Virus record (IMG/VR): IMGVR_UViG_3300036761_001580
Coordinates: 133,198 to 197,197 of that record
Strand: one strand, 5' to 3'
Length of the DNA: 64,000 bases
Source: a virus
Shown here piece after piece: positions 1,724-32,956 of the stretch. Every line of letters starts with the position of its first letter. The first letter of the stretch is position 1. The translations under genes and the position numbers were made by a program. Below the pieces are notes generated by a model. That model did not search any database. It worked only from the letters and a program-made list of their open reading frames with translations, and was not told the DNA's origin.

Positions 1724-1960
1724 CTACTCCTTGTCCTTGGGAAGAACCTTGCGCTCTACCACAAGGCAGCTCTCTTCGACCTCGACCTCAAACGTCGGGA
1801 GAATGATGGTCAGAACACCCTTCACGAACTCCTCGTTGCAGTTGAAGTACAACTGCATGTTCTGAACCATCCCCAGCGCCTCTCCAGAAGGGCTGATGAT
1901 CTTGGTGCCATTGCTCGTACCGTCCGAAACGATCTTCCACTTCTTCATGGCCTCAACCAT
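1724..1960 (-). CDS. hypothetical protein, 78 aa
   Basis: Track ORF filling the gap between flanking genes on the coding strand. Composition is not Arg/Gly-rich. 8-nt overlap with the upstream gene. Confidence 0.35.
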   Translation of the reverse strand: MVEAMKKWKIVSDGTSNGTKIISPSGEALGMVQNMQLYFNCNEEFVKGVLTIILPTFEVEVEESCLVVERKVLPKDKE

Positions 1961-3080
1961 TCTGAACCTCCCTCAGCTTCGTCACCATCGCGCTGATCCT
2001 GTCAGGCGACAGCCCTCCGACGTTTGCGAACCCACTCTGCATGTAGAGCGTCAGGTCGTCGAGCACCCCACGGGAGGTGCTGAAGTCCACGATGGCGGTC
2101 TCGTTCTCGACCTTGTACTCGCGGATGATGTCGACGCTCCTCGCGAGCATGATGTCCTTGTAGTTCTTCCAGCGAGAGTCGTCCGCCACACGGTCGACGT
2201 CCTTCCGGTTCCCCACGAGCTTCACCTCGACCGCCTGGTCGGTGATGTAGGTCTCGTTGATCTTGATTTCCTCGTACTGTGTCGCCGGCCCGACCTGCCA
2301 GATCTCCCGGTGGAAGTAGTTCCGGGTCGCTCGGAACTCCGTAGTGACCGTCCACTTCGTATCGTCCCAGACGGCCGTCACCTCGATCCACCCACGAGGC
2401 TTGTCGGCATCTGCGCGCGTCCTCTGCAAGACGGATCCCGTGTAGCCCCCTAAGGTGTGCGCGAAGGGGATCTTCTGAGGAACGTGGATGTCCCCTCCGA
2501 TCACGAAGTCCCACCAGTCCCGGTCGAGCTGCGCGATATCGATCCCGTTGTCGAACACCCGAGCCGAGGTGTCCGACATCAACGAGCCCTTCACGATGCC
2601 GTGAAACAGGAACAAGTTGAAGAAGGGCTTCCCGTGAGTAGGCTGGTAGATCTTCTCGTCGAACGGAGCATCCGCAGGGAGCGCATGGATGATGTAGTCA
2701 GCGTTCTCATGCCCGGGAAACAACGGCGTTCCAGGCTTGTCCATGATGACGAGGTTCGGGATCGACCTCAAGGACTCTGACGTGTGCCACGACCGGTTGT
2801 TCCTCGTCCAGTCATGATTCCCCACTAGATGGAAGTGAGGTGCGTCCGGTCGCATCGAAAGGAAGTACGCAAGCGCACGGTCGCACCTGACCTTGATCTC
2901 ATCCTCAGGCTCACGCTTCAGGTAGCGATCCCCGACGAACACCGAGAAGTCGAACTTGCCCTCGGCGACACGCTGATGCACCTGCTGCTCGATCCCCAGG
3001 GTGTCCTGCATCGTGAGGCACCGGGCGGCCTTCCGGTCGTGGTGGATGTCTCCATAAGCTATGAACCTGAGAGTCTTCAT
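1953..3080 (-). CDS. sbcD: Mre11/SbcD-like DNA repair nuclease (calcineurin-like phosphoesterase, phage gp47-like)
   Basis: Phosphoesterase motifs AYGDIHHD, VFVGDRY, LVGNHDW, GGDIHV. 375 aa. Adjacent to the Rad50-like gene. Confidence 0.85.
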   Translation of the reverse strand: MKTLRFIAYGDIHHDRKAARCLTMQDTLGIEQQVHQRVAEGKFDFSVFVGDRYLKREPEDEIKVRCDRALAYFLSMRPDAPHFHLVGNHDWTRNNRSWHTSESLRSIPNLVIMDKPGTPLFPGHENADYIIHALPADAPFDEKIYQPTHGKPFFNLFLFHGIVKGSLMSDTSARVFDNGIDIAQLDRDWWDFVIGGDIHVPQKIPFAHTLGGYTGSVLQRTRADADKPRGWIEVTAVWDDTKWTVTTEFRATRNYFHREIWQVGPATQYEEIKINETYITDQAVEVKLVGNRKDVDRVADDSRWKNYKDIMLARSVDIIREYKVENETAIVDFSTSRGVLDDLTLYMQSGFANVGGLSPDRISAMVTKLREVQNG

Positions 3081-3352
3081 GCTCGGGCACTTTCCGACCG
3101 CGGCATCGCGGACGTGTTGACCATGGACACGAACGTGAGGAGCACCGGATAGAGCTTCCGAACGAAATCCTGAAGCTCCACGAGTGAGTCCTCCAGAGAA
3201 GACCCTGAGGTGACCCTCGGGGACGTCTTCAGGAAGCGCAGCACGAGGTACTCACACAGCACGTCCACGTCCTCCAGTAGGAATTCATCCCCGAGGCACC
3301 CCAGGGCCTCACGAACAACCTCCCGGTACCTGTTCTCAAGCGGCGGTCGCAT
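3077..3352 (-). CDS. hypothetical protein (~92 aa, start trimmed to internal ATG)
   Basis: The track ORF 3077..3490 has an Arg-rich N-terminal part that overlaps the RecA C-terminus out of frame. The internal M (MRPPLENRYREVV..) at 3352 removes most of the overlap. Confidence 0.35.
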   Translation of the reverse strand: MRPPLENRYREVVREALGCLGDEFLLEDVDVLCEYLVLRFLKTSPRVTSGSSLEDSLVELQDFVRKLYPVLLTFVSMVNTSAMPRSESARA

Positions 3353-4391
3353 TTTCCTTCTCCAGGACCGCCTTCTTGATGGCTTCCTGCATCTCCAAGT
3401 TCTTCCCGAGGAAGTCCTTCGCAGCGATCTCGCCGTTCCCCAAGCGCTCGCCGTTGAACGAGTACCAGGAGCCGGCCGCCTCGATGACACCGTAGCGCTT
3501 CCCGGTCACGAAGATGTCCGCTGCCGGGAGGAACCCCCAGCCGTAGTACAGGTCCACGTCGGTGTTCCTGAACGGCATGGAGACCTTGTTCTTCATCACC
3601 TTGATGTGCGTAATCTGGCCTATCGGAGGAGCATTCTCCCCGACACCTTTGAGCTTGGTACCTTGTTTGACTTCGATGCGCTGCGAAGCGTAGAACTTGA
3701 GGGCGTTCCCTCCTGTGGTCGTCTCCGGGTTACCGAACACCACTCCGATCTTCATACGGAGCTGGTTGATGAAGACCAGGATGACCCCAGAGACAGAGAC
3801 AGTGTGCGTCAGCTTCCTCAGGGCCTGGCTCATGAGCCGAGCTTGGAGGCCCATGTGAGAATCCCCCATCTCTCCGTCCAGCTCGGTCTGCGGAACCAGG
3901 GCCGCCACGGAGTCCACGACGATCATGTCCCCGGCCTTCATGTGGTCGCAGAGGTTCTCGACCAACCTGAGAGCGTGCTCCGCGTTGTCGGGCTGCGCGA
4001 AAAGGGTCTTCGACCAGTCGATCCCGAGGACCTTCCCGTACGTCGGATACAGGGCATGCTCCAGGTCGATGAACGCTGCCGTTCCACCCCTGCGGTTCAC
4101 CTCAGCGATGGCGTGCAGGGTGAGGGTCGTCTTCCCGGAGGACTCAGGACCATAGACCTCAATGACACGACCCAAGGGGTACCCACCCCCCGTAGCAATG
4201 TCGACGCTCAGGATCCCCGAAGAAGACCGCGGCACGTTCTCCAGCTTCGTGCCTTCCAGCATCTGGATCCCGTAGACGTCGCTCTCCTTCTCCGCCTGGA
4301 TCTTGCGGAGAATATCCACTGCCGGCTCGACCACGGGTTCCGCGGCCTTCTTCTCTTTGTCCTTAGCCACGAGAGACCCCCTTCCTACCAC
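3336..4391 (-). CDS. recA: RecA recombinase
   Basis: Canonical RecA motifs: GRVIEVYGPESSGKTTLTLH (Walker A), IVVDSVAALVP (Walker B), FINQLRMKIGVVFGNPETTTGGNALKFYASQRIE. GTG start overlaps the upstream stop as GTGGTAG. Confidence 0.92.
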   Translation of the reverse strand: MVGRGSLVAKDKEKKAAEPVVEPAVDILRKIQAEKESDVYGIQMLEGTKLENVPRSSSGILSVDIATGGGYPLGRVIEVYGPESSGKTTLTLHAIAEVNRRGGTAAFIDLEHALYPTYGKVLGIDWSKTLFAQPDNAEHALRLVENLCDHMKAGDMIVVDSVAALVPQTELDGEMGDSHMGLQARLMSQALRKLTHTVSVSGVILVFINQLRMKIGVVFGNPETTTGGNALKFYASQRIEVKQGTKLKGVGENAPPIGQITHIKVMKNKVSMPFRNTDVDLYYGWGFLPAADIFVTGKRYGVIEAAGSWYSFNGERLGNGEIAAKDFLGKNLEMQEAIKKAVLEKENATAA

Positions 4392-6178
4392 TGTCGCATC
4401 GGCGGACCACCGGCACCCTCAGCGGGAGGGGTCGGAGCCCTGTCCGGAGGCGGCGGAGCGAAGCCGGGCACCACCCCAATCGGCGGAACCGTGCCCGGAG
4501 GCGGCACGGCCGGAGGCTGATTCGGCACCGGGGCCCCACCGTACGACTGCTGGGGCGGCTGCATGTTCGGCGGCGGAGCCATGGGCGGCATGCCCTGCGG
4601 GGGGGCTCCACCGGCCATGGGAGGCGTTCCCGGAGGCATCTGCCCTTGGGGCTGCCCGTACTGCTGCGGAGGCTGCTGAGCCGCGGGAGGCGCTCCTGGG
4701 GGCATCCCCGGGGGCATTCCCTGAGGCGGCTGCCCGGGAGGCGTACCGTACTGCTGCTGCGCCGGGTACTGCGGAGCCGGGGCCTGCTGGATCGGAGCCA
4801 TGCCCGGGTACGGAGCCGACTGCGGAGCCTGCGCCGGGGGAGCCTGGTAGGGCATCTGCTGCGCCGGGGGCTGGGCCTGGCCGTACTGGGGCTGGCCCAT
4901 CGGGGGCTGTCCCGGAGGGGCTCCCAAGGGATTCGAACCCGGGGGCAGACCAGCAGGCATGCCCGGAGGAGGCATTATGGGCGTCTGGCCGGCGTTCCCG
5001 ACCGGAGGATACCCCGTAGCACCTGCCCAGCCGGCTGCCTGAGGGCTGCCCATGGGAGCGCCGTACGCGGGCTGTCCCTGCGGAGGCTGTCCCTGCGGAG
5101 GCTGTCCCTGCGGGACGATCCCACCGGTCATCTGCTGCTGTGCCTGCTGGTAGTCGTTCCCCGCGGACTTCGTCTGACTGACGTAGTGGAGCCCCTCTTC
5201 GTAGGTGACGAGGTGAACCAGCGTCTCCGTCGGGTCGACCAGCGCGGCGTAGTTCTGGATGTACGCGATCCACTCCGGCGAGTACTGGAAGAACCTGTTG
5301 TTGAACACGGCATCGTACTCCGTGTCGCGCAGGTTGTTCTTCTTGCACTTGCTCGTGTCCTTCACGATGGAAATGATCGGGAACCCGCTGGGCGTGTTCT
5401 CGAAGAACCGGAGACCTTGCGGAGCCCCACCGGACGCGGCCCCGCCGTCGAACAGCCGAAGCAGCTTCGAGTGCACCGACTTCGGAGCGAACCACGCCTG
5501 GTGCAGCGTGGCCGGGTCATCACCCTCGCCCAGGGGACGCGCCCCTACGAACTTGTCGTGATCGAAGATCGCCAGGAAGTACTTGTCCTGGGCACCGATG
5601 TCGCGAGCCGCCCTCTTCGTCACCGACAAGACCGGATCCCTCGTGCACATGTCCCGGTAGCCGTCCGCCGAGAGGGCCTTCTTGTCGATCCCGAGAGCCT
5701 CCCACCGGGCATTGAAGAGATCCCACTGGCGCTGTGACTCCTCGCAGTGTGCGCAACGCACGGGCTGCTCGAACAACGGACCACGGCCCAAGGACTCCTG
5801 GAGGTACTTGTTGATCCCGATAGGGCAGAGCACCGAGGCGAAGCCCGTCGATCCGTCCGGCCGACTGAACTTGTCGACCTGGTGGATCGGGAGCTTGAAG
5901 TAGAAGGTGTAGATCGGGTTCGACGGATCGAGACCCACCAGAGTGGACCCGGGGATGGGAGCGCACATGCGGTACTTCCGACGCATCTCCTCCGTCGGGT
6001 TGAACATCTTCCAAGCGTGCGGGGTGAACAGTGGGAGGAGCACGTTGTTGAAGTGCACCATCCCTTCCTTGTTCGGAAGTGGACGCCACAGCTCCTTCAC
6101 GAGCGGGCCCTTTCGGTCCTCGTTGTCACGCTCTCTCTGATACGGCATCGAAAACTCGCCCATAGGCTTCCTCCTCAC
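4385..6178 (-). CDS. putative ssDNA-binding protein (tentatively gp32-like Zn-binding N-terminal domain) with a ~270-aa Pro/Gln/Gly-rich low-complexity C-terminal region
   Basis: 597-aa ORF. The N-terminal ~330 aa is globular with candidate metal ligands MCAP..H..CPIG..RCAHCEE. The C-terminal half consists of PQGQPPQGQPPQGQP-type repeats, encoded in part by 15-nt tandem DNA repeats at 5071..5115. It sits between recA and other replication genes where an SSB is expected. The assignment is inference only. Confidence 0.3.
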   Translation of the reverse strand: MRRKPMGEFSMPYQRERDNEDRKGPLVKELWRPLPNKEGMVHFNNVLLPLFTPHAWKMFNPTEEMRRKYRMCAPIPGSTLVGLDPSNPIYTFYFKLPIHQVDKFSRPDGSTGFASVLCPIGINKYLQESLGRGPLFEQPVRCAHCEESQRQWDLFNARWEALGIDKKALSADGYRDMCTRDPVLSVTKRAARDIGAQDKYFLAIFDHDKFVGARPLGEGDDPATLHQAWFAPKSVHSKLLRLFDGGAASGGAPQGLRFFENTPSGFPIISIVKDTSKCKKNNLRDTEYDAVFNNRFFQYSPEWIAYIQNYAALVDPTETLVHLVTYEEGLHYVSQTKSAGNDYQQAQQQMTGGIVPQGQPPQGQPPQGQPAYGAPMGSPQAAGWAGATGYPPVGNAGQTPIMPPPGMPAGLPPGSNPLGAPPGQPPMGQPQYGQAQPPAQQMPYQAPPAQAPQSAPYPGMAPIQQAPAPQYPAQQQYGTPPGQPPQGMPPGMPPGAPPAAQQPPQQYGQPQGQMPPGTPPMAGGAPPQGMPPMAPPPNMQPPQQSYGGAPVPNQPPAVPPPGTVPPIGVVPGFAPPPPDRAPTPPAEGAGGPPMRQW

Positions 6179-6195
6179 CGCCTCACTGGCGGTAG

Positions 6196-6858
6196 CTAGC
6201 TCTTTCTGTACCCACCAGCCGCCTCCATGATGGCGGCCTCGTTCACACTCATCGGACCCACGTTACCGAACTTCGCCATGAAGGCCCTGGCGTAAGCTCC
6301 CAAGTGGAAGGACTTGTCATGCAGCTTGGACGCAATACTCTTCACCAGATCCGCGTCCTCCTTGAGCTTCGACGCCGTCTCGCTGACGGTCTCGAAGTAC
6401 CACGGAGGCGTCAGCATCTGATACTTGTACATCACCTTGTAGTACTCATCGAAAGTGCCCGCGAAGCGCTTCTTGATCGCGAAGTCGTGAGCCTGCGCCG
6501 CGTACTTCTTGCGCTCAGTCTCGGACGTGTCCGCAGCGTAGATCTGCACCGCCATGTCCTGAACCGCAGGTCCTGTCGGCTTCGGCTCCCCGTACGCAGC
6601 CAGAACCTCCCTGGAGTAGGTATTGCTATGCGCCCACCACTTCTTCGCCCAGACATCCACGAAGTTCTCGTGCCTGGACGACAACCGGATCGACAACGCC
6701 TCCCAGTACGACTGGTTGCCGGAATGCGTCCTCAGAAGGTGCTCCACGTCCTCCGGATTGAAGGTCAGCATGGCCTCGACGTCCTGCTGGAGAAGACTCT
6801 CGTCCAGAGCGACGTTCACCTGGTTGCCGTTGATGGCTATAGAGTACCTTCCCGCCAA
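6196..6858 (-). CDS. hypothetical protein, 220 aa
   Basis: Track ORF in the coding strand of the operon. Balanced composition. No motif recognised. Confidence 0.5.
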   Translation of the reverse strand: MAGRYSIAINGNQVNVALDESLLQQDVEAMLTFNPEDVEHLLRTHSGNQSYWEALSIRLSSRHENFVDVWAKKWWAHSNTYSREVLAAYGEPKPTGPAVQDMAVQIYAADTSETERKKYAAQAHDFAIKKRFAGTFDEYYKVMYKYQMLTPPWYFETVSETASKLKEDADLVKSIASKLHDKSFHLGAYARAFMAKFGNVGPMSVNEAAIMEAAGGYRKS

Positions 6859-6861
6859 GTT

Positions 6862-7551
6862 CTACTCCTGCGGAGGAACCCCGGACGGCATCGTGCCGGA
6901 AGGGATCCCTTGGTGCACAGCCACCTCGAAGGTCGCGCCACCCTTGTTCAGCTGCTCCGCGAATCTGGAAGCCGCGTTCTCGGCAGCCGCCAGATCGACG
7001 GGATCGGTCTGGTTGATGATCCCCGAGGACCAGTACACGCCGAACCGGTACAGCACCCTCTTGAAGTCCTGCGTGTCGTGCGGAACGAGCCCGTCCATGG
7101 CCGGCTTGATGTGCGTCAGCTCGTGGTACAAGGTGATCCTCTCCAAGGTCGCCCTGAGCATCTCCGCGCTCTCGCTCACACCAGCCTTGGCCCTCAGAGC
7201 GGTGTCGTTGATCATGACGACGTACCTGATGTCCATCAGATCAGCTTCGAGCCCCCGCAGCTGCGTGAGATCGAGCATCCCCATGGACCCGAGAGTCGCG
7301 AGAACGTAGCGGGCTACGAGAGGGTCCGGAGCGTTCCCGAGGTACTTGATCTTGCCGAGCCACGTCGTGCTGCTAACCCCTATCGCGCGAACGAATACGA
7401 CGTGCCCCAACTTGACGTGTTCGAGATCCTCCGAATACCGCTCGACCAACTCCTCCGCCATCGTTTTCAGAGACTCGTCGAGCACCCAACGGTCGCCCTT
7501 CGGGCCCACGAACTCCGCTATGCTCTGGAAGGCTTCCGACTGTGTCGTCAT
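6862..7551 (-). CDS. hypothetical protein with HExxH motif (possible zinc-metallopeptidase-like), 229 aa
   Basis: LYHELTHIKP contains HELTH. No further peptidase motifs were verified. Confidence 0.45.
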   Translation of the reverse strand: MTTQSEAFQSIAEFVGPKGDRWVLDESLKTMAEELVERYSEDLEHVKLGHVVFVRAIGVSSTTWLGKIKYLGNAPDPLVARYVLATLGSMGMLDLTQLRGLEADLMDIRYVVMINDTALRAKAGVSESAEMLRATLERITLYHELTHIKPAMDGLVPHDTQDFKRVLYRFGVYWSSGIINQTDPVDLAAAENAASRFAEQLNKGGATFEVAVHQGIPSGTMPSGVPPQE

Positions 7552-7741
7552 GAACCACTCTCCTGAACTCTTCCGGCGTCAGCCGTACTCTTTCTTCGAT
7601 CCCACAGTTCCCGCAGTAGACCACCAAGTCAACGTACTTTTCGGTCTCGAAGCTACCCCGTTTCCGCATCCACCTCCGGCACTCCGGGCATTGAATGTTC
7701 ACGAACCAAGGGGGCCTGTACTCCTCACTGCCCACATCCAC
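7373..7741 (-). CDS. possible small zinc-ribbon protein (boundaries uncertain)
   Basis: N-terminal CPECRRW...CGNCG looks like a zinc ribbon. The C-terminal third is Gly/Arg-rich and overlaps gene 6862..7551 out of frame for ~180 nt, so the true extent is unclear. Confidence 0.3.
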   Translation of the reverse strand: MDVGSEEYRPPWFVNIQCPECRRWMRKRGSFETEKYVDLVVYCGNCGIEERVRLTPEEFRRVVHDDTVGSLPEHSGVRGPEGRPLGARRVSENDGGGVGRAVFGGSRTRQVGARRIRSRDRG

Positions 7742-8807
7742 ACGCCTTCACCGCGAACATGCCCCAGATGACCTTCGGGTTCGAAGTCGTCCTCATGAAC
7801 TCGACGGTCACCTCCCACTCCCGGACCAGGCGTTCAACGTCAGGGAGCCTTAATCTTAAATTACGAGAAAACCCTTCGAAGGTTAGACCACTCAGGCACT
7901 CGACATTTTCTGAAGGAATACCTGCAAGAAACATCGAAAAGTCCCGCAACAACACAGGAATTCCCTCTATAAATAGGTTCTGAAGGTCCCAACCCTCGTA
8001 ATACCAGCATCGAATTTTTTCTAAAAAAAGTCTCAAATCCTTCCGATCCAGGACCTCCGCGAGCTGTCCGTACTCCTCCCGAGAGATGACCCCAACGGAA
8101 TCTCGGAGGAGGTTGACGTCGACAACACCGTCACCCGCGGCCAAGACCATGCTTTCGAGGATCTGCTGCGCGTCCCTGAGAGAGCCCCCTCCGAGCATCC
8201 CCAAGCGGTTCACGAAGTCCTCGGTGTACTGCCGACCCTCGGCGGTGAGGATCATCCTGGCGTTGTCCGCGACCTCCTTCGAGTTGAGCACCCTCAGAGG
8301 AGCCGAAAGGCACCTCGACCTGAGCGTGTCCTCGACCTTCTGAGGGTCCGTGGACGCCAGCAGGAACACAGTCCGTGGCGGAGGGTCTTCGACCTGCTTG
8401 AGCAGTGCGGCCTGAGCCTGCTTCGAGAGCATGTGGCACTCGTCGAGGATCAGAACGCGGTACTTGTGGATCACCGTCTGACGCAGGATCCCTTCCAGGT
8501 CACGCACGTCGTCGACCCCGTTGTAGGACGCTGCGTCCCTTTCAAGGATCGAAAGATGAGAGTCGGCCGCTTCTCGGCAGGAAGGGCACGTTCCGCACAG
8601 GTCGCCCACGGTCTTGAAGTTCTCGCAATTCAGCGCGCGAGCGTACAGCCGGGCCAAGGTGGTCTTCCCGGTGCCCCGAGTACCGGCGAAGAGGATCGCC
8701 GCCGGTACTCGGTCCATCAGAATCGAGTTCCTCAAGATCCGGCACGTCACCGGCTGGCCGACGACCTGTGCGAACGTCGCAGGTCGGTATTTTACCGAAT
8801 ACTGCAT
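7725..8807 (-). CDS. dnaX: DnaX-like clamp loader ATPase (DNA polymerase III gamma/tau-like, AAA+)
   Basis: KYRPATFAQVVGQ box, Walker A GTRGTGKTTLARL, Walker B ILDECHML, sensor-1 TLRSRC. The start was trimmed to the internal ATG at 8807 (MQYSVKYRP), which overlaps the upstream stop as TGATG. Confidence 0.8.
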   Translation of the reverse strand: MQYSVKYRPATFAQVVGQPVTCRILRNSILMDRVPAAILFAGTRGTGKTTLARLYARALNCENFKTVGDLCGTCPSCREAADSHLSILERDAASYNGVDDVRDLEGILRQTVIHKYRVLILDECHMLSKQAQAALLKQVEDPPPRTVFLLASTDPQKVEDTLRSRCLSAPLRVLNSKEVADNARMILTAEGRQYTEDFVNRLGMLGGGSLRDAQQILESMVLAAGDGVVDVNLLRDSVGVISREEYGQLAEVLDRKDLRLFLEKIRCWYYEGWDLQNLFIEGIPVLLRDFSMFLAGIPSENVECLSGLTFEGFSRNLRLRLPDVERLVREWEVTVEFMRTTSNPKVIWGMFAVKACGCGQ

Positions 8808-9673
8808 CAGGGCTTGTAGAACGGCAAAGCGATGCCGTAGAACTCCTTCACCGCCTTGGCGATGCGCAAGCACCTCGGGCTCTTCGGGTCGTTCTTCCAC
8901 CCCCACTGACCGAAAGTCGAGAGGTTCGTCATCTTCCAGGCCTTGTCGAAGTAGGCCTGAGGGTCACTGACCTCCGCCTTCAGGAACAGCTTGTAGGCCG
9001 CCCCCGGGTTGTTCTGCCAGAGGTTGAAGAACAACGCGACGAGCGCGGAGTCCCACGACGCCGGGTTGTCCGCCTTGAGCAAGTCCCTGATGGTCCTCCC
9101 TCCCAACGGGGGCCTCGGGAAGTCGAGCTGCCGAGCGAACTCGGCCTTGGCGTACGCGATCTGCGCCTCGGGGACGCCGGGCTTCGCTCCCATGTCCGCA
9201 AAGAGCTGCGCGAGAGCAAGAGCTGACTTGTTCGGAGTATCAGACTCGGCACCCATGCAGACATCCACGATCCACTTCTTCCCGACAGCATTGCTGGGAT
9301 CGAGAGCCAACCCACCCACCCAGAACTTCCCGTCTCTAATCTGGAAGCCGAACCGGGAGAAGACCTGAGGACCCCCGATAGCCCCCAAACACACCTGATC
9401 GAACAAGGTATGGTACCCGTTCTCCAGCGGGATCGACTTGAAGCTCTCCAGGAGCTTCTGGAGCCGGCCGCTGGTGAAGGTCCACTGTAGGAACCCCCAG
9501 GTCACCCCGGTGCCGTCGTACATGACGACGGTGTCGTGGTTGCCCTCACAGCGCGCGACCACGCCGAGGACCTTCGTCCAGGGCCCCCAGGGCTGCGCGG
9601 GGTTGAACCCGACGGATCCGATGACCCGGGGGCCACCTCCGTCCTTCCACTTGACCCACTGTGCTTTCGGCAT
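8807..9673 (-). CDS. hypothetical protein, ~289 aa
   Basis: Track ORF 8807..9784 trimmed to the internal M (MPKAQWVKW) just after the upstream stop at 9676. No confident motif. A lysozyme/transglycosylase-like role was considered and could not be supported. Confidence 0.45.
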   Translation of the reverse strand: MPKAQWVKWKDGGGPRVIGSVGFNPAQPWGPWTKVLGVVARCEGNHDTVVMYDGTGVTWGFLQWTFTSGRLQKLLESFKSIPLENGYHTLFDQVCLGAIGGPQVFSRFGFQIRDGKFWVGGLALDPSNAVGKKWIVDVCMGAESDTPNKSALALAQLFADMGAKPGVPEAQIAYAKAEFARQLDFPRPPLGGRTIRDLLKADNPASWDSALVALFFNLWQNNPGAAYKLFLKAEVSDPQAYFDKAWKMTNLSTFGQWGWKNDPKSPRCLRIAKAVKEFYGIALPFYKP

Positions 9674-9675
9674 GT

Positions 9676-10830
9676 CTACCTCCCCTTCTTCTTCGACCGA
9701 GAAGCCTTCTTGACGTTGTGCGCCTTGGCCTTGTGGGGCCCGAGGCCCTTCGAACTCTTCGCCACGAACCCGCAGACGTCGCAAACAAGGCTCTTCGAGA
9801 TGTCGTTGGCCTTCTGGATGTCGTCTTCTGCCTGCTCGACAGCCGGATCGGATTCCCCGTTCATCAGGTCGAAAGCGCGCTTCAAATGAGCCCCTTCTTG
9901 ATCCTGAAGAGCCTGAGCCTTCATCTCAGGTACGGACCGAAGCGTGTGCGCCGCCTTCGGGGCGGCCTCAGCCTCCTTGGCATGGAGACCCAAGGACGCC
10001 TCCGACTCCTCTTTGGGGTTATACCCATTCCGGGCCCCTGCCTTGTATGCCTTGAACCTCTCCTGGAGGTTGGCGTACTTCCCGTTCGAAGAGATCACCT
10101 TCACCCACTCCTTGAGCGCGCTGTAGGTCCTCGGCAGTGTGTAGTCCGCCTTCTCGCCCTCACCAGGCTCGTCCTTCCCGAACAGCGCGTTCCGGATGAG
10201 CTGCTTCTTCGACTCCTCGTCGAACACGTTCTCCTTCAACCACATGAGAACGCCGTAGACGGGGTCCACCTCGTTGAAACGAGCCTCGGCGACCTCCAGG
10301 CTCCTGTGGTGGAAGTCGATCTGCGTGAGGAGTGCCTCGTGCTCCTCCGAGAAGGCCTCCACGACCTTGTTGAAGGTCATGATCTCGAAGGCCTCCCTGC
10401 CCGGTGAAGGGTGGACGACGTTGGGGTCCACCGGGGGCATCGTGATCTCTTCAAGCTCGGGGATTGGTACCACATCGAAAGAGTGGGTTGCTTGCTGGAG
10501 CTTGTACCCCCTCGGAGCCTTCTTTCCGAGCCACAACTGCATCGGGGGGTTCGGCTTGAGGAGGAACCTCTTGAGGTCGACCGAGTTCTTGAGGACCTCG
10601 AAGGGGAAGTCCAGCCGCAACCAGTTGTCCCCCCGAGGTATCAAAAAGCTCAAGGGCCTTCCTTCCCGCTCCAGCATCATGCTGATCTGGCCCTTGAAAA
10701 CGTTCCGAATGAACACCGGGCGCTCCTTGGAGAAGAACTTGTCCACCTCCCGCGCCGTCAACCTTTGCTTCTTCATATCAATCACCCTTTCGGCGTCCTC
10801 ACGCCTCTTCTTTGTGTTTGTACCTGTCAC
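9676..10830 (-). CDS. hypothetical protein with C-terminal C2H2-like zinc finger, 384 aa
   Basis: CDVCGFVAKSSKGLGPHKAKAH at the C-terminus, followed by a basic tail. The start may instead be the internal MKKQRL (10776) to avoid a 32-nt overlap with the polymerase gene. Confidence 0.5.
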   Translation of the reverse strand: MTGTNTKKRREDAERVIDMKKQRLTAREVDKFFSKERPVFIRNVFKGQISMMLEREGRPLSFLIPRGDNWLRLDFPFEVLKNSVDLKRFLLKPNPPMQLWLGKKAPRGYKLQQATHSFDVVPIPELEEITMPPVDPNVVHPSPGREAFEIMTFNKVVEAFSEEHEALLTQIDFHHRSLEVAEARFNEVDPVYGVLMWLKENVFDEESKKQLIRNALFGKDEPGEGEKADYTLPRTYSALKEWVKVISSNGKYANLQERFKAYKAGARNGYNPKEESEASLGLHAKEAEAAPKAAHTLRSVPEMKAQALQDQEGAHLKRAFDLMNGESDPAVEQAEDDIQKANDISKSLVCDVCGFVAKSSKGLGPHKAKAHNVKKASRSKKKGR

Positions 10831-13015
10831 TCCACCTTTGCACGATCTCCGTGTCGACCGTCAGTGGCACCCTGAACTGCGTGACCTCCCGCAGCCGGGT
10901 CGTCATGCAGTCGTCCATGAGGCGGCTCACCTGCTCGACGCACTCGACGTGCGAGTGGACCACCAGTTCGTCGTGGATATGAAGGATCGGAGCAGCCTTC
11001 AGACCGTTCTTGATGATCTCCCGGCTGATCCAGATCAATGACAACGACGCCATGTCGACCGCGGAGCCTTGGATGGGGCTGTTCACGGACTGGCGGAGTG
11101 CCCTGTTGACGATGCTCTGCGCCCGAAGCACCTCGTGGTTGATGACACAGGACCGAACGTATTGGCAGCTCCTACAGGAGCTAAACGTGTTCCCCTTCTT
11201 CGACTTGAGATGATCCTGCAACACGTCTACGGGCATCGGGTAGAGTTCTTCCAGAGGGATGCCCAGCCACTTCGGATACGGACCATCCTTCTTGTAGCAC
11301 GGAGGACGTTTCTCCCACGAGGGGCCCGGTACACCGTTCGGAATCAGGGTGGCCGCCTCTGGGAGATGCCGCCTGCGACCAAAGATGTTCCGAACGTAGC
11401 CGTACCTCTTGACAAACTCATGGGTATCGTCGATCCACTGCTTCAGCACCGGGGCCGCGCCGAAGTAGTCCTCCCAGATCAGCTTGTGGGCCTCCTCCTG
11501 TGAGATCCCGAGGCTCTCGGCAAGAGCTTTCTCGCTCTGCCCGTACGCGATGCCGAAGTTGATAGTCTTGGCATGAGAGCGCTCCTTGGAGTACAGGTCC
11601 TTCACCTGGTTGACCTCGCAGGGGAGGTTCCAGATCTTCTTCGCCATCGCGGCGTGCATGTCGTAGCCGTTGTTGAAGCCATCCACCCAGACCGGCTCTC
11701 CCGAGATGTGCGCGATGACCTTCAGTTCGATCTGGGAGAAGTCCTTGAAGACCATGCGGTGCGCGTCGTCCGTGCACCACATCGACTTCACGACAAGACC
11801 ACCGTTCTCAGGTCTCGGGAGTGTCGTCAGGTTGGGGTCCCGCAGCTTCAGGCGGCCGGTCTTCGAGTCCATCCAGTACTCCGGATGGACCCAGCCGATG
11901 TAGCCCTGATTCGTGATCTCGACGACCTTGTTCAGCGCCGGCTCGGCGTAGAGGTTGTGGATCTGCTGCGCGCGGCGGAACTCCAGGAGCGGTTCCCGGA
12001 TCGGATGCTCCAAGCCCCTCACGAAGTCCATGTCCGTGCTCCACGAACCGTCCGCGGTGTGCTTCCCTGGCAGCCCCATCACCTCGAAGAGCTGCTTGCC
12101 GAGCTGCTCCGGGGAACTCACCTTGAACTTCGCCCCGCAGATCTCCTGGATACGCCTAGTGTTGACCTCAATGATCTGCTCCTGCTCAGCCTTCACCTGC
12201 TGTGCCCGATGAAGGTCCAGAGGCACTCCGTGAAGCTCCATGAGCATCAACGTGTGTTGCAGGGGGATGATCAGGTTGTCGTTCAGCGCAATGAGTTCCT
12301 CGGCCTCCAGCATCGGCATGAACACGTACTTCAGCGACAGAGTCAGATCGGCGTCGGCGCAGCCGTAGGGGTAGAGGACGTTCAACGGGACTTTGGAGTA
12401 GCGCAACATCTGAGGATCGTAGAACCTCAGCGCTTGGGCGAGATCGCCCTTGAACTGGCTCGCCGCGGTGTCTAGGTACGCATCCGAGATGCCCAGCTTG
12501 GTCACCTTACCCTCGGCGCTGAAGTCGGATTTCAAGGCGTGCGAGGAGGTCACGCAGTCTTCATCCAAAAGCGTGTGTGCGAGCATCGTGTCGAACGCCA
12601 GGCTCCGGGTGTAGATCTTCATGAGGTTCGCGAGCTGCCGAACGTCGAACTTGCCATTCTGCGCCACCTTGGGGGTAGGGCTTTCGAGAATCTCCTTGAG
12701 AAGGTCCTCTACATGAACCTGCCGAGAGCCCCAGAAAGGCGAATCGTCCGAACGGCTCAACGGAATGTAGGCCGCGTTGCCCGGGGTCCAGGGACGAACG
12801 ATTTCCGTCCGCCCCCAAGAGAAAGAGATGCCGCACACCTTGTGTGGGTAGTTCCTCGGTATCTTGTCCTTCATCGACTTGGAGGTGGGGTAGTTGGTCT
12901 CGATGTCGAAGGAGAACTCCTTCGAGTCGAACAGCACCGAAGCCAGCCACGAGAACTTCTTGGGGCTGTCGATCAAGTGATAGGTCTTCGGGACCTCGAT
13001 GTTCGAAAAGAACAT
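10799..13015 (-). CDS. polA: DNA polymerase, family A (Pol I-like) with 3'-5' exonuclease domain, no 5'-3' exonuclease domain
   Basis: Exo I FSFDIETNYP, motif A KDFSQIELKVIAHIS, motif B KTINFGIAYGQS, motif C ILHIHDELVV. 738 aa. Confidence 0.9.
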   Translation of the reverse strand: MFFSNIEVPKTYHLIDSPKKFSWLASVLFDSKEFSFDIETNYPTSKSMKDKIPRNYPHKVCGISFSWGRTEIVRPWTPGNAAYIPLSRSDDSPFWGSRQVHVEDLLKEILESPTPKVAQNGKFDVRQLANLMKIYTRSLAFDTMLAHTLLDEDCVTSSHALKSDFSAEGKVTKLGISDAYLDTAASQFKGDLAQALRFYDPQMLRYSKVPLNVLYPYGCADADLTLSLKYVFMPMLEAEELIALNDNLIIPLQHTLMLMELHGVPLDLHRAQQVKAEQEQIIEVNTRRIQEICGAKFKVSSPEQLGKQLFEVMGLPGKHTADGSWSTDMDFVRGLEHPIREPLLEFRRAQQIHNLYAEPALNKVVEITNQGYIGWVHPEYWMDSKTGRLKLRDPNLTTLPRPENGGLVVKSMWCTDDAHRMVFKDFSQIELKVIAHISGEPVWVDGFNNGYDMHAAMAKKIWNLPCEVNQVKDLYSKERSHAKTINFGIAYGQSEKALAESLGISQEEAHKLIWEDYFGAAPVLKQWIDDTHEFVKRYGYVRNIFGRRRHLPEAATLIPNGVPGPSWEKRPPCYKKDGPYPKWLGIPLEELYPMPVDVLQDHLKSKKGNTFSSCRSCQYVRSCVINHEVLRAQSIVNRALRQSVNSPIQGSAVDMASLSLIWISREIIKNGLKAAPILHIHDELVVHSHVECVEQVSRLMDDCMTTRLREVTQFRVPLTVDTEIVQRWSDRYKHKEEA

Positions 13016-13016
13016 G

Positions 13017-13589
13017 CTACCACCTGCGGCTTTCCACGGGAGAGTGGCTTCCCCAGTGTTCCTGGAAATAGATCCACGCGCGCATCAAGACGGTAACGAG
13101 ACTTCGGAGATCCCGCTGCTGGATGAAGAAGTCCCGCACCCGGGCACCGTTGTTCGTGAACTCCCTCCAACAGCAGACATGGAATACTTGCGTCCCGTTG
13201 TCGTCCGAAAGAAGCAGCTCTCCGATGACGGAGCCGCTCTTGAATTCCTTGACGGTTTCGTACTTCGCTTTGAAATCCTCCGAAGTCCCTTCGAGGAACC
13301 GGATGACACGCTGTGGCTGCTCCAACGGCATGGGTGGCCCACAGTCCGCGTCCCGGATCTCCTTGTGCCTGTCCGAGATGTAGGTCATGGCCTCCATGAT
13401 CGCGACAACCAGGTGCGGGATGCTGGGAATCCGTACCAGCGGGGAGAGGTACCGAGTGGTGCCCTCGACGCATTCCGACGCGCACACCACGTCGAAGAAC
13501 GTCTTCTGGGAGGGCTCCACCGTCTTTTGGTAGATCTCAACCAGTGCGCTCGTGTCCCCGAATTCAGAGACTCTGAAAGACTTTGTCAC
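13017..13589 (-). CDS. hypothetical protein, 190 aa
   Basis: Track ORF, coding-strand context, starts 2 nt after the upstream stop. Confidence 0.45.
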   Translation of the reverse strand: MTKSFRVSEFGDTSALVEIYQKTVEPSQKTFFDVVCASECVEGTTRYLSPLVRIPSIPHLVVAIMEAMTYISDRHKEIRDADCGPPMPLEQPQRVIRFLEGTSEDFKAKYETVKEFKSGSVIGELLLSDDNGTQVFHVCCWREFTNNGARVRDFFIQQRDLRSLVTVLMRAWIYFQEHWGSHSPVESRRW

Positions 13590-17247: not shown

Positions 17248-18606
17248 TCATTTGTCAACGACGAAGGGGTTGATCTTGGCAGCGTGCTCCCACAGCCGGT
17301 GCAGCTCCCGGGAGATAGACATCCGCGCCAGATCTGCATCGAGAACGATCTCAGGGATCGTGATCGATCCGTCTCGCGCGAACTGCGGGCTCAGGATGAT
17401 GATCCCCTCGTCGCGCTCGTCATCCGTCTGATCGATAGCTATACAAAGGTCCAGTGCCCTGGAGATGTCGATGCTCAGGCCGCGGTGCTCCAGGGAGAGA
17501 CGGTCAGCCTTCACGCCGGCCATGTTCGCCTGGCTCGCCTCGAAGATGGCAACATTGAACTTCTCCGCGTGCCTCTTCAGGTCCCAGACGATCTGCTTCT
17601 GCTCACGCCGCTCCTCGCCCTTGAACCGGACGCTGGGAGCGATGATGTTCAAGTAGTCCCAGATCTCGACATCCGGAGACCACCCTTCTTGATCGCGGAA
17701 GCGCTCGACCTCGACCTCGACCTCAGCCACGGTGGTCTCCTCCGCGGTCGCCTTCACGATCTTCAGCCGGTTGCTCCAGGTCTTCATCCAGGAGAACGTG
17801 CGGTCGAGATTGTCCTTCTCCTCCTGGGTGAGCAGCAGGTTCGAGATGCGCTGGTAGTTCAACTCGCTGAACATCGCGTCGTACCTGCCCATCGTCATCT
17901 CCTCGGAGTTCTCGTAGGTGACGTGGAGCACGTTGAAGCCTTGGAGCAGGAGCGCGTAGCCCATGGCGTTCAAGAAGATCGACTTGTACCTCTTGAAAGG
18001 CGCGATGAAGTCGCACACCATCGGGGCCTTGATAACGAACTGCACGTCGAGACCGCGGATGCCTGTCATCAGTCGCGGGTTCAGATTAGGGTTGTCTCGC
18101 GATACCCTCCGACGGGACATGCGTTCAGGGTAGTTGTCAACGTAGTCGACGACTCTGAGCTTGCGGCCTTGGATGACATTTCTGGCCTCCAGAACGCCCT
18201 TCCCAAGGGCTTCCAGGAGGTAGTCCACCCGCGAGGTCTGCGAGAAGCCCTCGAAAGCTGCGCGCGACGTCGAGTTGATGATACAGAACGAAATGTAGGC
18301 CCTGAACTTCGCGGACGCATCCTCCAGAAATGTGAGCGGGCGCGTGTACAAATGCCACATCTGGGCACGGTACTTCACCAGCTCCTCGGGGTCTTTGACC
18401 GAGAGCATCTCCTGGTCGAGGAAGTCCCACACAAGAGGCTTCCACTTCCGTTCCTTCAGGAGCTTCACCAGCCACTTGTAGGATGGGATCTGGAAGTGCT
18501 CGGGCTCCACGACCGCCAGGACGTCAGGATCGACCAGGCCAGGCTTCTGAACCACGGCGGCGAGGAACTCGGCCTCGATGTTGACATCGATCTTCAAGTC
18601 GGCCAC
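17248..18606 (-). CDS. dnaB: DnaB-family replicative helicase with non-canonical Walker A
   Basis: LMTGIRGLDVQF (DnaB TGxxxLD), Walker B-like EIWDYLNII, H4-like IFEASQANM, arginine-finger-like LSLEHRGLSID. The P-loop position reads APFKRYKS rather than GxxxxGKT. Confidence 0.55.
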   Translation of the reverse strand: MADLKIDVNIEAEFLAAVVQKPGLVDPDVLAVVEPEHFQIPSYKWLVKLLKERKWKPLVWDFLDQEMLSVKDPEELVKYRAQMWHLYTRPLTFLEDASAKFRAYISFCIINSTSRAAFEGFSQTSRVDYLLEALGKGVLEARNVIQGRKLRVVDYVDNYPERMSRRRVSRDNPNLNPRLMTGIRGLDVQFVIKAPMVCDFIAPFKRYKSIFLNAMGYALLLQGFNVLHVTYENSEEMTMGRYDAMFSELNYQRISNLLLTQEEKDNLDRTFSWMKTWSNRLKIVKATAEETTVAEVEVEVERFRDQEGWSPDVEIWDYLNIIAPSVRFKGEERREQKQIVWDLKRHAEKFNVAIFEASQANMAGVKADRLSLEHRGLSIDISRALDLCIAIDQTDDERDEGIIILSPQFARDGSITIPEIVLDADLARMSISRELHRLWEHAAKINPFVVDK

Positions 18607-20032: not shown

Positions 20033-21186
20033 GGCTTCCTCCAATGGATGTCTTTCAGCCCCGTGTACTTCGAGATGTTGGTCCCACCCTCGTTCCAGAG
20101 CCCCAGGTACAAGCCCCACTTCGAATACTCCTCCCAGGTGGGCTCCGCGGACAACAACCGAGGATCGTCCCACTGCTTCTGGAAGAACTGGAAGTTCGAG
20201 GGCACGCAGCAGATGTTCAGGTACTTGTTCTGGGCGTAGTGCCGGCGTCCGCGGCGCTGCGTGCCGTCCTCGCGGTAGTAGTACCCATCCGCGGTGATGC
20301 ACACGATCTTCGAGGCATCGTCAGCATCCTCCGAGGAGGGTCTCCAGCCCTTCGGCAGGCAGTTGTCCTTGAACTGGCACCCCGTAGAGAGACCAAGGAA
20401 CCTGCGAAGGTCCCTCCAAGGGTCCCGCTGCATGGCCTTGATGGACTCCAAGTCGGGATCGAAACCGTTGGTGTTCAGAATCATGGAGATCAGAACCGTC
20501 GCGCCAGGGTCCTTCCGGTTCAAGAACTCTGCGCAGCGAGTGTACTTCACCTGGAGCCACTCGGCGGGTTCCACCCCGAGGCCTTTCAGGGCTGAAACCT
20601 TGTCCAGTACGCGGTGGTAGAGCACCAGGTACTTGGTGGGCGAGCCCTTCGCGCCTCTGGGGACCTGATCGGTGGCTACGAAACCGTTCAAAGGCAACCC
20701 AAGGTCACGCTTCCCCTGGACCTGGAGGTTGACGAACTCCATCATGAAGGTGGCGACCGTGTCGAAGGCCTCTCTGGAGCCGGCGGCAGCCCGGAGCTTC
20801 CGAAACCAGCTCAGTCTGCTGTTCTGAAAGACCAGGAGGGTCGGACGCTCCCACAGCTCGTACGCCGTCGTCAAGAACAGCAAGGTGAGGTAGCTCTTCC
20901 AGTTGATGCCCTCCTCTTCCATCAAGTGGAAGAAGCTCCGGAAGCTCTCCTTGCGGAAGCGCAGGAGCCTGTAAGGATCCTGGTCGTGCCAAGGCCTCAT
21001 GAGCCCTGTGTAGCCCCGGTACGTCCAGATCTGCCGCGAGAGGTCGATGAGTTCCGCGTAAAAAGGCTCCGGATCCAGCTGATTTTCACTATTGAAATAA
21101 ATCGGCTTCAGGTGTTGGTCTTCCGGCTGGGGTATGGACCCCCTTGTCAACTCCGCCTTGACCATCTGGTTCAGAAAGTCGTTCAT
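20029..21186 (-). CDS. hypothetical protein, 385 aa (function unknown)
   Basis: Clean 385-aa ORF with no recognisable catalytic motif. Flanked by the Nudix and SNF2 genes with overlapping stop/start codons. Confidence 0.55.
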   Translation of the reverse strand: MNDFLNQMVKAELTRGSIPQPEDQHLKPIYFNSENQLDPEPFYAELIDLSRQIWTYRGYTGLMRPWHDQDPYRLLRFRKESFRSFFHLMEEEGINWKSYLTLLFLTTAYELWERPTLLVFQNSRLSWFRKLRAAAGSREAFDTVATFMMEFVNLQVQGKRDLGLPLNGFVATDQVPRGAKGSPTKYLVLYHRVLDKVSALKGLGVEPAEWLQVKYTRCAEFLNRKDPGATVLISMILNTNGFDPDLESIKAMQRDPWRDLRRFLGLSTGCQFKDNCLPKGWRPSSEDADDASKIVCITADGYYYREDGTQRRGRRHYAQNKYLNICCVPSNFQFFQKQWDDPRLLSAEPTWEEYSKWGLYLGLWNEGGTNISKYTGLKDIHWRKP

Positions 21187-32931: not shown

Positions 32932-32956
32932 CAAAGCCTCCTACGTTAGCCCCGTG

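Follow-up and report, generated by a model that had tools for sequence, protein, structure and literature searches.

T4 gp32 acts in both replication and recombination, and proteins of the gp32 type are monomers. gp32 has a short N-terminal peptide and a hinge before its core, the former being a basic 'B' peptide of the KRKST ('LAST') type, and a disordered C-terminal extension that is an acidic, Ser/Asp-rich region of about 50-100 aa. In T4-like phages, gene 59 (the helicase loader, about 217 aa) lies directly upstream of gene 32. The E. coli SSB is built on another core fold and is a tetramer. Its DNA-binding core is followed by a variable and poorly conserved P/Q/G linker, which is G/Q/P-rich, and by a conserved, aromatic-ended tip. 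This tip is DDDIPF in bacterial SSBs. T7 gp2.5 is a phage SSB that also has a C-terminal aromatic residue, a Phe that is the key anchor for the polymerase and the helicase. In HSV-1 ICP8, filament cooperativity is achieved via a C-terminal FNF motif. The linker of E. coli SSB controls cooperativity and phase separation, while the tip recruits partners (PMC7584906, PMC7145534, PMC10164576, PMC12143593), and both phase separation and non-nearest-neighbour cooperativity require the linker (bioRxiv 10.1101/797431, that is PMC7584906; PMC12143593; bioRxiv 10.1101/2022.01.17.476650). The dynamics of the T7 gp2.5 tail have been described (PMC10359462), the C-terminal tail of PRD1 P12 has a role in cooperative ssDNA binding and filament formation (PMC11886824), and T4 gp32 and UvsX are scaffold-like condensate proteins in RPA reactions (PMC11951158).

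Here we analyze a gene within a 64-kb stretch of DNA from a large uncultured phage (the window, meaning all of the DNA that was analysed). We favor the view that its product is a gp32-fold SSB with a disordered, P-rich linker and a conserved C-terminal docking module, and we consider this reading probable. The ORF at 4385..6178 on the minus strand, which had been listed in a preliminary description, is real, and its product is 100% identical to the database protein P0001 from a metagenomic contig of 205,564 bp. The likely start is ATG 6163 and not the listed GTG 6178, because the GTG falls within the Shine-Dalgarno sequence (GGTGAGGAGGAAGCCT-ATG) and all homologues of the SSB candidate have the equivalent Met as their first residue. 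The gene and its immediate neighbours are as follows.

4385..6163, minus strand: complete CDS of the SSB candidate, 592 aa, with the TAG stop at 4385-4387
6164..6180, minus strand: ribosome-binding site GAGGAGGA, ending 6 nt upstream of the ATG (direct reading of the sequence)
6196..6858, minus strand: 220-aa protein, a candidate partner by synteny in relatives
3336..4391, minus strand: RecA/UvsX-like recombinase, a candidate partner (PF00154, 2e-96; phrog_97 UvsX-like, 7e-76)

The gene order is PolA, clamp loader, metallopeptidase-like gene, 220-aa gene, SSB candidate, RecA, SbcD and SbcC, and it is kept in relatives down to 37% identity. The clamp loader lies at 7725-8906, a 325-aa protein at 8807-9784, PolA at 10799-13015 and a DnaB-like helicase at 17248-18606. 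As with gp32, the gene belongs to a module with genes for a UvsX/RecA-like recombinase and an Mre11/Rad50-like nuclease. The 220-aa gene, which always lies directly upstream of the SSB candidate gene in relatives and usually overlaps it, is close in size and position to gene 59 of T4-like phages; its product has no match in Pfam, PHROG, NCBIfam or the PDB sequences. At the other end, the GTG start of the recombinase overlaps the Trp and stop codons of the SSB candidate (GTGGTAG). The family counts about 100 representatives at 50% identity, all of them metagenomic and on viral contigs of up to 212 kb. Its members have in common the core, a linker that is disordered and hypervariable, and a C-terminal module that is conserved. 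Neither the target nor three distant family members gave a tblastn match in the INPHARED phage collection, and no INPHARED phage matches the phage's own PolA at more than 31% identity. There are no tRNAs within the 64-kb window, and the GTDB genomes contain no close relative.

The N-terminal half comprises the features below.

5159..6091, minus strand: gp32-fold core by structure prediction, residues 25-335
6116..6154, minus strand: conserved N-terminal peptide FSMPYQRERDNED, residues 4-16
5744..5884, minus strand: putative zinc site, His94 (5882-5884), Cys113 (5825-5827), Cys137 (5753-5755) and Cys140 (5744-5746)

The AF2 model of residues 1-338 (pLDDT 84.2, pTM 0.81) has the three-dimensional fold of gp32, that is, a predicted OB-like barrel with a zinc-binding subdomain. 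A Foldseek search of BFVD returned 12 matches at E<=1e-3 with annotated phage SSBs on top, and the structural neighbours of the core are gp32 proteins and not bacterial SSBs. In the PDB, Foldseek found no significant match and gp32 was absent. There is no significant sequence similarity to gp32, and the target core is about 80 residues longer. Pfam, PHROGs and NCBIfam gave no match to the SSB candidate, PF08804 (gp32, at E<=0.1) and PF00436 (bacterial SSB) included, and phmmer and hmmsearch against the PDB sequences gave noise only. Among distant members, PF08804 is the most recurrent Pfam match, at sub-threshold level (2/36, E 0.047), and phrog_1192 'SSB' matches one family member at 3e-6. 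When the 94-sequence core profile was compared with a gp32 alignment by hhalign (E 0.003, 147 columns), the two were collinear, with CxxC aligned to CxxC and FDHDK..RPLxEG to VKDP..PENEG. Over the hhalign comparisons with this gp32 alignment, which holds 6 sequences, the scores are not significant (E 0.018-0.003, probability 2.6-10.5%). These sequence links to gp32 are collinear but weak, and homology does not reach standard thresholds.

The four putative zinc ligands follow the order H...C...CxxC as in T4 and RB69 gp32 (His64, Cys77, Cys87 and Cys90 in T4), and hhalign places His94 on T4 His64 and Cys137/Cys140 on Cys87/Cys90. They are invariant in 21 close homologues, and in 36 distant homologues no other core residue is. 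Such a His/Cys3 site is not universal in gp32, since some bona fide gp32 proteins in the alignment do not have the zinc-site cysteines. The N-terminal peptide is at the position of the 'B' peptide but is not of its basic type. M6 and P7 are nearly invariant, and the family pattern, xFxMPYxREKE, is mixed or acidic. It is followed, as in gp32, by a hinge, here Gly/Lys-rich and of low confidence (residues about 17-24; AF2 pLDDT is low for residues 14-23).

The C-terminal part of the protein had been described as a P/Q/G/A/M low-complexity tail of about 270 residues. The composition holds, but the measured length is 254 aa (residues 339-592). The segments that can be delineated in its proximal part are:

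4541..5149, minus strand: hypervariable, uncharged, P/Q/G/A/M-rich linker, predicted to be disordered, residues 339-541
5069..5113, minus strand: 15-nt tandem repeat x3, encoding PQGQPPQGQPPQGQP = (PQGQP)3, residues 351-365
4685..4720, minus strand: GMPPGMPPGAPP, residues 482-493, partly encoded by a 12-nt x2 repeat

The tail contains 31.5% P, 17.3% Q, 15.4% G, 12.6% A, 5.9% M and 3.5% Y, and it is the only P/Q/G/A-rich stretch of such kind in the ORFs of at least 60 aa in all six frames of the window. Only 4 of its residues are charged, and these lie among the last 20 aa; it has 12 aromatics (9 Tyr, 2 Trp and 1 Phe) spaced along its 254 residues, and 13 PxxP motifs. Intrinsic disorder is predicted by AF2, as the preliminary description had proposed, with residues 336-592 all in coil at pLDDT 36-52. 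The label 'prion-like' does not fit. Judged from composition, by the criterion of sequences rich in Q/N/S/G/Y with few prolines and few charges, the tail is uncharged and has 17% Gln, but Pro makes up 31.5% of it and Asn only 1.6%. Having a long tail is a trait of the family as a whole and is not peculiar to this gene: over 102 relatives, the linker has between 22 and 254 aa (median 111.5), the target being the longest. Mean identity to homologues is 47% in the core, 42% in the N-terminal peptide (20 homologues), 36% in the C-terminal module and 18% in the linker, where 55% of residues are opposite gaps. Proline richness is likewise a family trait (median 28% P), although some relatives have K/E/S-rich tails. 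GC bias was considered as its cause and rejected: tail and core are correlated in GARP content (rho 0.42), but not in proline content (rho 0.17, p 0.10).

The 15-nt DNA repeat was recovered by Tandem Repeats Finder at 5070..5113 (2.9 copies, 100% identity, score 88), and a perfect 45-nt array of period 15 is far beyond chance. The program also found the weaker 12-nt x2 repeat at 4698..4721. The expectation that repeat number would vary by slippage is confirmed, since two near-identical strain sequences, P0124 and P0125, are without exactly one PQGQP unit and otherwise the same. The copy-number polymorphism is present in nature.

The pattern of conservation indicates that the tail is not uniformly low-complexity, a point missed in the preliminary description. 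Its last 50 or so residues form a conserved module:

4388..4540, minus strand: conserved C-terminal module, residues 542-592, GGAPVPNQPPA...VPPIGVVPGF...PPDRAPTPP...GGPPMRQW-COOH
4388-4411, minus strand: basic-aromatic tip, residues 585-592, GGPPMRQW

Because of this module, we recast the tail as a linker with a docking tip, a layout that has not previously been annotated for this protein family. The family pattern is ...PPDRxPTPP...[KR][KR]xW-COOH, and 21 close relatives show no variation at P573, R575 or W592. In 100 of 102 relatives, a W or F falls among the last 6 residues, and 67 relatives have W as the exact end; the frequency of W in the family cores is only 1.9%. The target shares with bacterial SSBs the layout of a variable linker and an aromatic-ended tip, on a core of another fold family that is presumably a monomer rather than a tetramer. 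Its linker is 4-5 times longer than that of the bacterial protein. The tip also differs in charge from the acidic DDDIPF type of E. coli SSB: it is basic in the target, and the last 8 residues carry a net positive charge in 82/102 relatives and a net negative one in 11/102. A minority of relatives have acidic tips, such as NDDDVPF (P0088), NDDVPW (P0039) and DDDDGIDW. Since these resemble DDDIPF, we suggest that the tip occupies a position functionally equivalent to the C-terminal tip of bacterial SSBs. We know of no characterised SSB with a basic tip. In relation to gp32, both proteins have a disordered C-terminal extension, but that of the target is longer, uncharged and P-rich with a basic-aromatic end. 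T7 gp2.5 shares the terminal aromatic residue, but it is an OB-fold dimer whose acidic tail is short (about 26 aa), and it has no long linker. A similar ending occurs in a 190-aa protein encoded upstream of PolA, which ends SRRW (KRRW in one relative). This was rejected as general evidence, since the orthologues in two other relatives do not have the ending.

We hypothesize that the core of about 310 residues binds ssDNA and is probably stabilised by zinc through His94, Cys113, Cys137 and Cys140, and that the short conserved N-terminal peptide may, like the N-terminus of gp32, serve in contacts between neighbours. The uncharged, P-rich linker of about 200 residues would be a long flexible tether whose length drifts freely via replication slippage of short in-frame repeats. 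The module of about 50 residues, ending PP-x-[KR]-[KR]-x-Trp-COOH, would act as a docking motif that recruits or regulates replisome or recombination partners. The co-translated 220-aa protein encoded just upstream and the RecA-like recombinase encoded downstream are candidates for such partners, as are the helicase, PolA and the clamp loader. Monomers arrayed on ssDNA would then give a brush of long tails showing many tips.

A different emphasis, already raised in the preliminary description, is that the tail serves mainly for self-association, with the P/Q/G linker and its sparse Tyr, Met and Trp stickers gathering SSB-coated ssDNA into a liquid-like replication and recombination factory and the tip being secondary. 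A condensate role of the tail is plausible. The lack of charge, the 12 spaced aromatics, the 13 PxxP motifs and the Gln content all suit it, as do the resemblance in composition to the E. coli SSB linker and the family-wide proline richness for which GC bias is not the cause. However, neither the sequence of the linker, nor its length, nor even its composition is conserved, and proteins of the gp32 type, being monomers, lack the multivalency on which E. coli SSB draws as a tetramer. The high proline content also speaks against prion-like or amyloid behaviour. As the main function of the tail, we consider self-association somewhat unlikely.

The C-terminal module could instead be a homotypic cooperativity element, docking on the core or N-terminal peptide of another SSB molecule so that ssDNA is bound cooperatively over long range or bridged, in place of the recruitment of other proteins. 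PRD1 P12 and HSV-1 ICP8 offer a model, since in these viral SSBs a C-terminal tail aids cooperative ssDNA binding, but they have other folds and much shorter tails, and P12 docks via a helix adjoining its core. The conserved N-terminal peptide could be the receptor. The pLDDT of residues 1-10 rises from 58 to 83 once the tail is included in the model, a change that fits such docking but is unexplained and possibly noise. In the same full-length AF2 model, the tip (pLDDT 42-45) is not docked on the core or elsewhere, so there is no confident intramolecular contact. In addition, a tether of 200 residues is ill-suited to contacts between nearest neighbours, and independent switches to DDDVPF-like tips are more readily explained by a change of heterologous partner. 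Thus, we regard homotypic docking as unlikely, and we favor the heterologous partners of the linker-and-tip reading.

A third alternative keeps the gp32-like fold but not the replicative role; the protein could then mediate recombination, act in annealing or be a loader dedicated to the RecA-SbcCD operon. The gene is translationally coupled to RecA and is near SbcD and SbcC rather than the polymerase, and its sequence similarity to gp32 is marginal. But T4 gp32 itself serves both processes, and the module also holds PolA, the clamp loader and the helicase within 13 kb. Among the six flanking genes and the other large ORFs scanned, which cover part of the window, no SSB-family match was found. 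This alternative is therefore improbable. Finally, that the tail is a frameshift or assembly artefact, or codes in another frame or strand, is scarcely credible: long ORFs do overlie it (4419..5495 on the minus strand, 4303..5019 and 4646..5737 on the plus strand), but we attribute them to GC-rich, stop-poor sequence in which codon-position GC is uninformative, and the artefact is refuted because every indel against two relatives lies within the tail and has a length divisible by 3, the C-terminal motif is conserved in frame, the terminal W/F recurs in relatives that come from independent assemblies of many samples, six near-identical sequences of independent origin concur, and the frame is kept among about 100 relatives.

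If the favored reading of a gp32-fold SSB with a linker and docking tip is correct, an unannotated family is added to the phage SSB repertoire, and a disordered linker with a terminal docking motif arose not only on the OB-fold tetramer of bacteria but also on the scaffold of gp32. A bolder extension, which we hold to be doubtful, is that these proteins make up a phage SSB class of their own: a gp32 core with a convergent linker and a charge-inverted Trp tip would serve a private network of phage-encoded partners and not the interactome of the host SSB. The exceptionally long, P-rich linkers, tunable by slippage, would form a brush or condensate on SSB-coated ssDNA and so organise the replication and recombination factory of large phages, perhaps also shielding it. 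Long neutral-linker variants could behave differently in isothermal amplification, where gp32 is a reagent and condensates of gp32 and UvsX matter (PMC11951158). The natural series, with its range of linker lengths and its basic and acidic tips, is a ready-made system for the study of cooperativity, partner recruitment and condensation. Within it, P0012 has a linker of about 30 aa, and in P0007 a related GMPPQ unit is expanded to about 20 copies.

An open reading frame does occupy 4385..6178 on the minus strand, as the preliminary description held, but its start codon and tail length have to be revised. GTG 6178 falls within a strong ribosome-binding site, GGTGAGGAGGAAGCCT-ATG; translation almost certainly begins at ATG 6163, for a length of 592 aa, and this Met is matched by an equivalent Met in all homologues. 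The product is identical to P0001, a metagenomic protein encoded on a 205,564-bp contig. Its tail, residues 339-592, has 254 aa rather than about 270 and consists of 31.5% P, 17.3% Q, 15.4% G, 12.6% A, 5.9% M and 3.5% Y, with only four charged residues, each within the final 20 positions. Among all ORFs of 60 aa or longer in the window, whatever their frame, this is the only one to carry a P/Q/G/A stretch of this kind. The label "prion-like" does not suit a sequence that is 31% proline.

We conclude that the core (residues 1-338) is, by its predicted structure and weak sequence signals, a very divergent gp32-fold domain. The protein has no match in Pfam, PHROGs, NCBIfam, PDB sequences or 50,697 phage genomes. 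An AlphaFold2 model of the core, based on a 21-sequence alignment, is confident (pLDDT 84.2, pTM 0.81), and a Foldseek search against predicted viral structures gave 12 matches at E<=1e-3, the top ones being annotated phage ssDNA-binding proteins of Myoviridae sp. ctNQV2, Vibrio phage YC and Tenacibaculum phage PTm1. His94, Cys113, Cys137 and Cys140 are invariant among close homologues and are the sole invariant core residues among 36 distant ones. They have the same order as the zinc ligands of T4 gp32 (His64, Cys77, Cys87, Cys90), with which hhalign pairs them; the gp32 sequence compared is 100% identical to the T4 record over residues 1-275. When the core is represented by a profile of 94 sequences, residues 131-331 are collinear with gp32 81-238 (E 0.003, probability 10.5%). 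PF08804 (gp32) is the commonest recurring sub-threshold Pfam match among distant members, and one family member matches phrog_1192 "SSB" at 3e-6. The proposed SSB-like N-terminal domain is upheld at the level of fold; in sequence the protein stays below the gp32 family threshold and lacks the basic N-terminal motif and acidic C-terminal domain of gp32-type SSBs. We infer ssDNA binding by the core, as well as zinc binding and the oligomeric state of the protein. The N-terminal peptide has a mean identity of 42% to 20 homologues. Between the core-only and full-length models, the pLDDT of residues 1-10 rises from 58 to 83 and the N-terminal helix extends from residues 8-12 to 8-18 (residues 1-18 correspond to 6110-6163); the rise could be noise or a tail contact.

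The gene lies among the following neighbours, all of which share its strand:

1953-3080 (-): SbcD-like nuclease
3336-4391 (-): RecA/UvsX-like recombinase, whose GTG start overlaps the Trp-stop codons of the tailed protein (GTGGTAG, 4385-4391)
6196-6858 (-): 220-aa protein with no family match, stopping 32 nt before the start of the tailed protein
6862-7551 (-): protein like the PF18894 "putative phage metallopeptidase", two genes upstream and in the same position in most relatives
7725-8906 (-): clamp loader
8807-9784 (-): 325-aa protein with no family match, between clamp loader and PolA
10799-13015 (-): PolA
13017-13589 (-): 190-aa protein of no recognised family, directly upstream of PolA (counterpart L001:389-958, in a relative)
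17248-18606 (-): DnaB-like helicase
21183-22994 (-): SNF2 helicase
24132-25679 (-): FEN-UDG fusion of 515 aa, with the N-terminal and SAM-fold domains of a 5'-3' exonuclease (FEN) plus a uracil-DNA-glycosylase-superfamily domain
28192-32934 (-): 1580-aa protein with a NosD/beta-helix segment, probably a tail fibre or depolymerase

Since a baseplate wedge protein is also encoded, the phage is contractile-tailed. The gene is present on thirteen IMG/VR viral contigs, which are 23-212 kb long. Across relatives' contigs of 35-188 kb, the order PolA, clamp loader, (metallopeptidase-like protein), 220-aa protein, tailed protein, RecA, SbcD, SbcC is kept down to 37% identity. By analogy, this is where a T4-style replication/recombination system would be expected to encode its SSB. 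The 220-aa gene, the SSB gene and the RecA-like gene abut or overlap by 1-11 nt in relatives, which suggests that they are translationally coupled. The 220-aa protein has invariant KWWAH and WYFE motifs and no match in any library searched; its gene lies directly upstream of the SSB gene, just as in T4-like phages gene 59 (a helicase loader of ~217 aa) directly precedes gene 32. The 325-aa protein, a candidate for the sliding clamp or for another subunit of the replisome, has counterparts of 281-313 aa in relatives, which share a conserved terminal ...EFYG.DLKYYK.

A profile search over 1.84 billion representative proteins returned only 105 relatives, 102 of which cover the C-terminal end of the core. 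Tail length in these runs from 22 to 254 residues (median 111.5), the present tail being the longest, and the median proline content is 28%. The GC proxy derived from the core is tracked by the G+A+R+P content of the tail (rho 0.42) but not by its proline content (rho 0.17, p 0.10). In some distant members the tail is rich in K/E/S instead. In the full-length model everything from residue 336 onwards is coil (pLDDT 36-52). Averaged over 20 homologues, identity is 47% in the core, falls to 18% in the linker (residues 339-541), where gaps face 55% of positions, and is 36% in the last 51 residues. This C-terminal module has the recurring motifs [VI]P-x-QPPA, P[VI]xx[VI]P, PPDR-x-TPP-x-G and PP-x-[KR]-[KR]-x-W-COOH. 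W or F occurs within the last six residues of 100 of the 102 relatives; the exact terminal residue is W in 67 and F in seven, whereas W makes up 1.9% of residues in the cores. Over the final eight residues the net charge is positive in 82/102 and negative in 11/102. The acidic minority includes NDDVPW (P0039), DDDDGIDW (P0037), ...YPDGIQW (P0017, P0019) and NDDDVPF (P0088), the last of which we take to be essentially the bacterial SSB tip DDDIPF.

We suggest, by analogy, that the protein follows the logic of E. coli SSB and T7 gp2.5, i.e., a DNA-binding core, a poorly conserved disordered linker and an aromatic-anchored terminal docking peptide. The core would coat ssDNA. The linker would serve as a flexible tether, tunable by slippage, for which the precise sequence does not matter, and the C-terminal module would dock on at least one partner from the replisome or the recombination machinery, with the co-translated 220-aa protein and the RecA-like recombinase as first candidates. 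Partner proteins of E. coli SSB are recruited through its tip (PMC10164576, PMC7145534), and its G/Q/P-rich linker sets the degree of cooperativity and phase separation (PMC7584906; bioRxiv 10.1101/2022.01.17.476650; PMC12143593). A monomer lattice on ssDNA would present a dense brush of tails. The condensation envisaged in the preliminary description might then occur, an idea that draws support by analogy from E. coli SSB and from T4 gp32/UvsX condensates (PMC11951158). The main alternative is that the tip acts homotypically, giving long-range cooperativity, for which PRD1 P12 provides a precedent (PMC11886824). However, the full-length model leaves the tip undocked on its own core, and the independently arisen bacterial-type acidic tips better fit a switch of heterologous partner. 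Under the docking reading the architecture resembles that of bacterial SSBs, but the protein is not one of them: the scaffold is that of gp32, the linker has four to five times the length of the E. coli one, and the tip, acidic in E. coli, is basic in most family members.

Tandem Repeats Finder confirmed the 15-nt repeats and located a second array:

5070..5113: 15-nt tandem repeat, 2.9 copies, 100% identity, score 88, encoding (PQGQP)3 (residues 351-365)
4698..4721: 12-nt x2 repeat, inside GMPPGMPPGAPP

Two members of the protein's own 90%-identity cluster, P0124 and P0125, have exactly one PQGQP unit fewer at the 15-nt array and are otherwise identical. In the cluster of another relative, P0007, the (GMPPQ)n tract differs by -39 and +29 residues between proteins with 100% identical cores. 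Assembly collapse could add to the differences in this long array, but it cannot explain that at the 45-nt array. A single reading frame is held through highly dissimilar linkers in 21/21 homologues (33-86% core identity), all closed by the same C-terminal motif with P573, R575 and W592 invariant. In a coding-DNA alignment with loci L016 and L015 (91% and 85% core identity), indels are confined to the tail and are multiples of three, except for one pair of adjacent gaps of 11 + 34 nt = 45. Because of the in-frame indels, the common terminal motif and the PQGQP copy-number variation, the predicted repeat-number slippage is borne out and a frameshift artefact as the origin of the tail is excluded.

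A disordered tail on the SSB of a large phage is unsurprising. What is notable here is the extreme linker, the observed length polymorphism and the charge-inverted conserved tip, together with the fact that some 100 sequence clusters have no annotation at all; in open-access text we found no annotation or paper on the family or on a basic, Trp-terminated SSB tip. The 190-aa protein upstream of PolA ends ...ESRRW here and ...TKRRW in the relative at L001, like the SSB tips MRQW and QRRW of the same two phages, and its orthologues in two other relatives lack an RRW-type ending. A related phage (P0020 contig, 170 kb) has in its replication module a 120-aa Zn_ribbon_Top1 protein (L003:4547-4909, +) whose C-terminus, ...STNKDDIPF, resembles the bacterial SSB tip; by analogy, this protein could hijack host SSB-interacting proteins.
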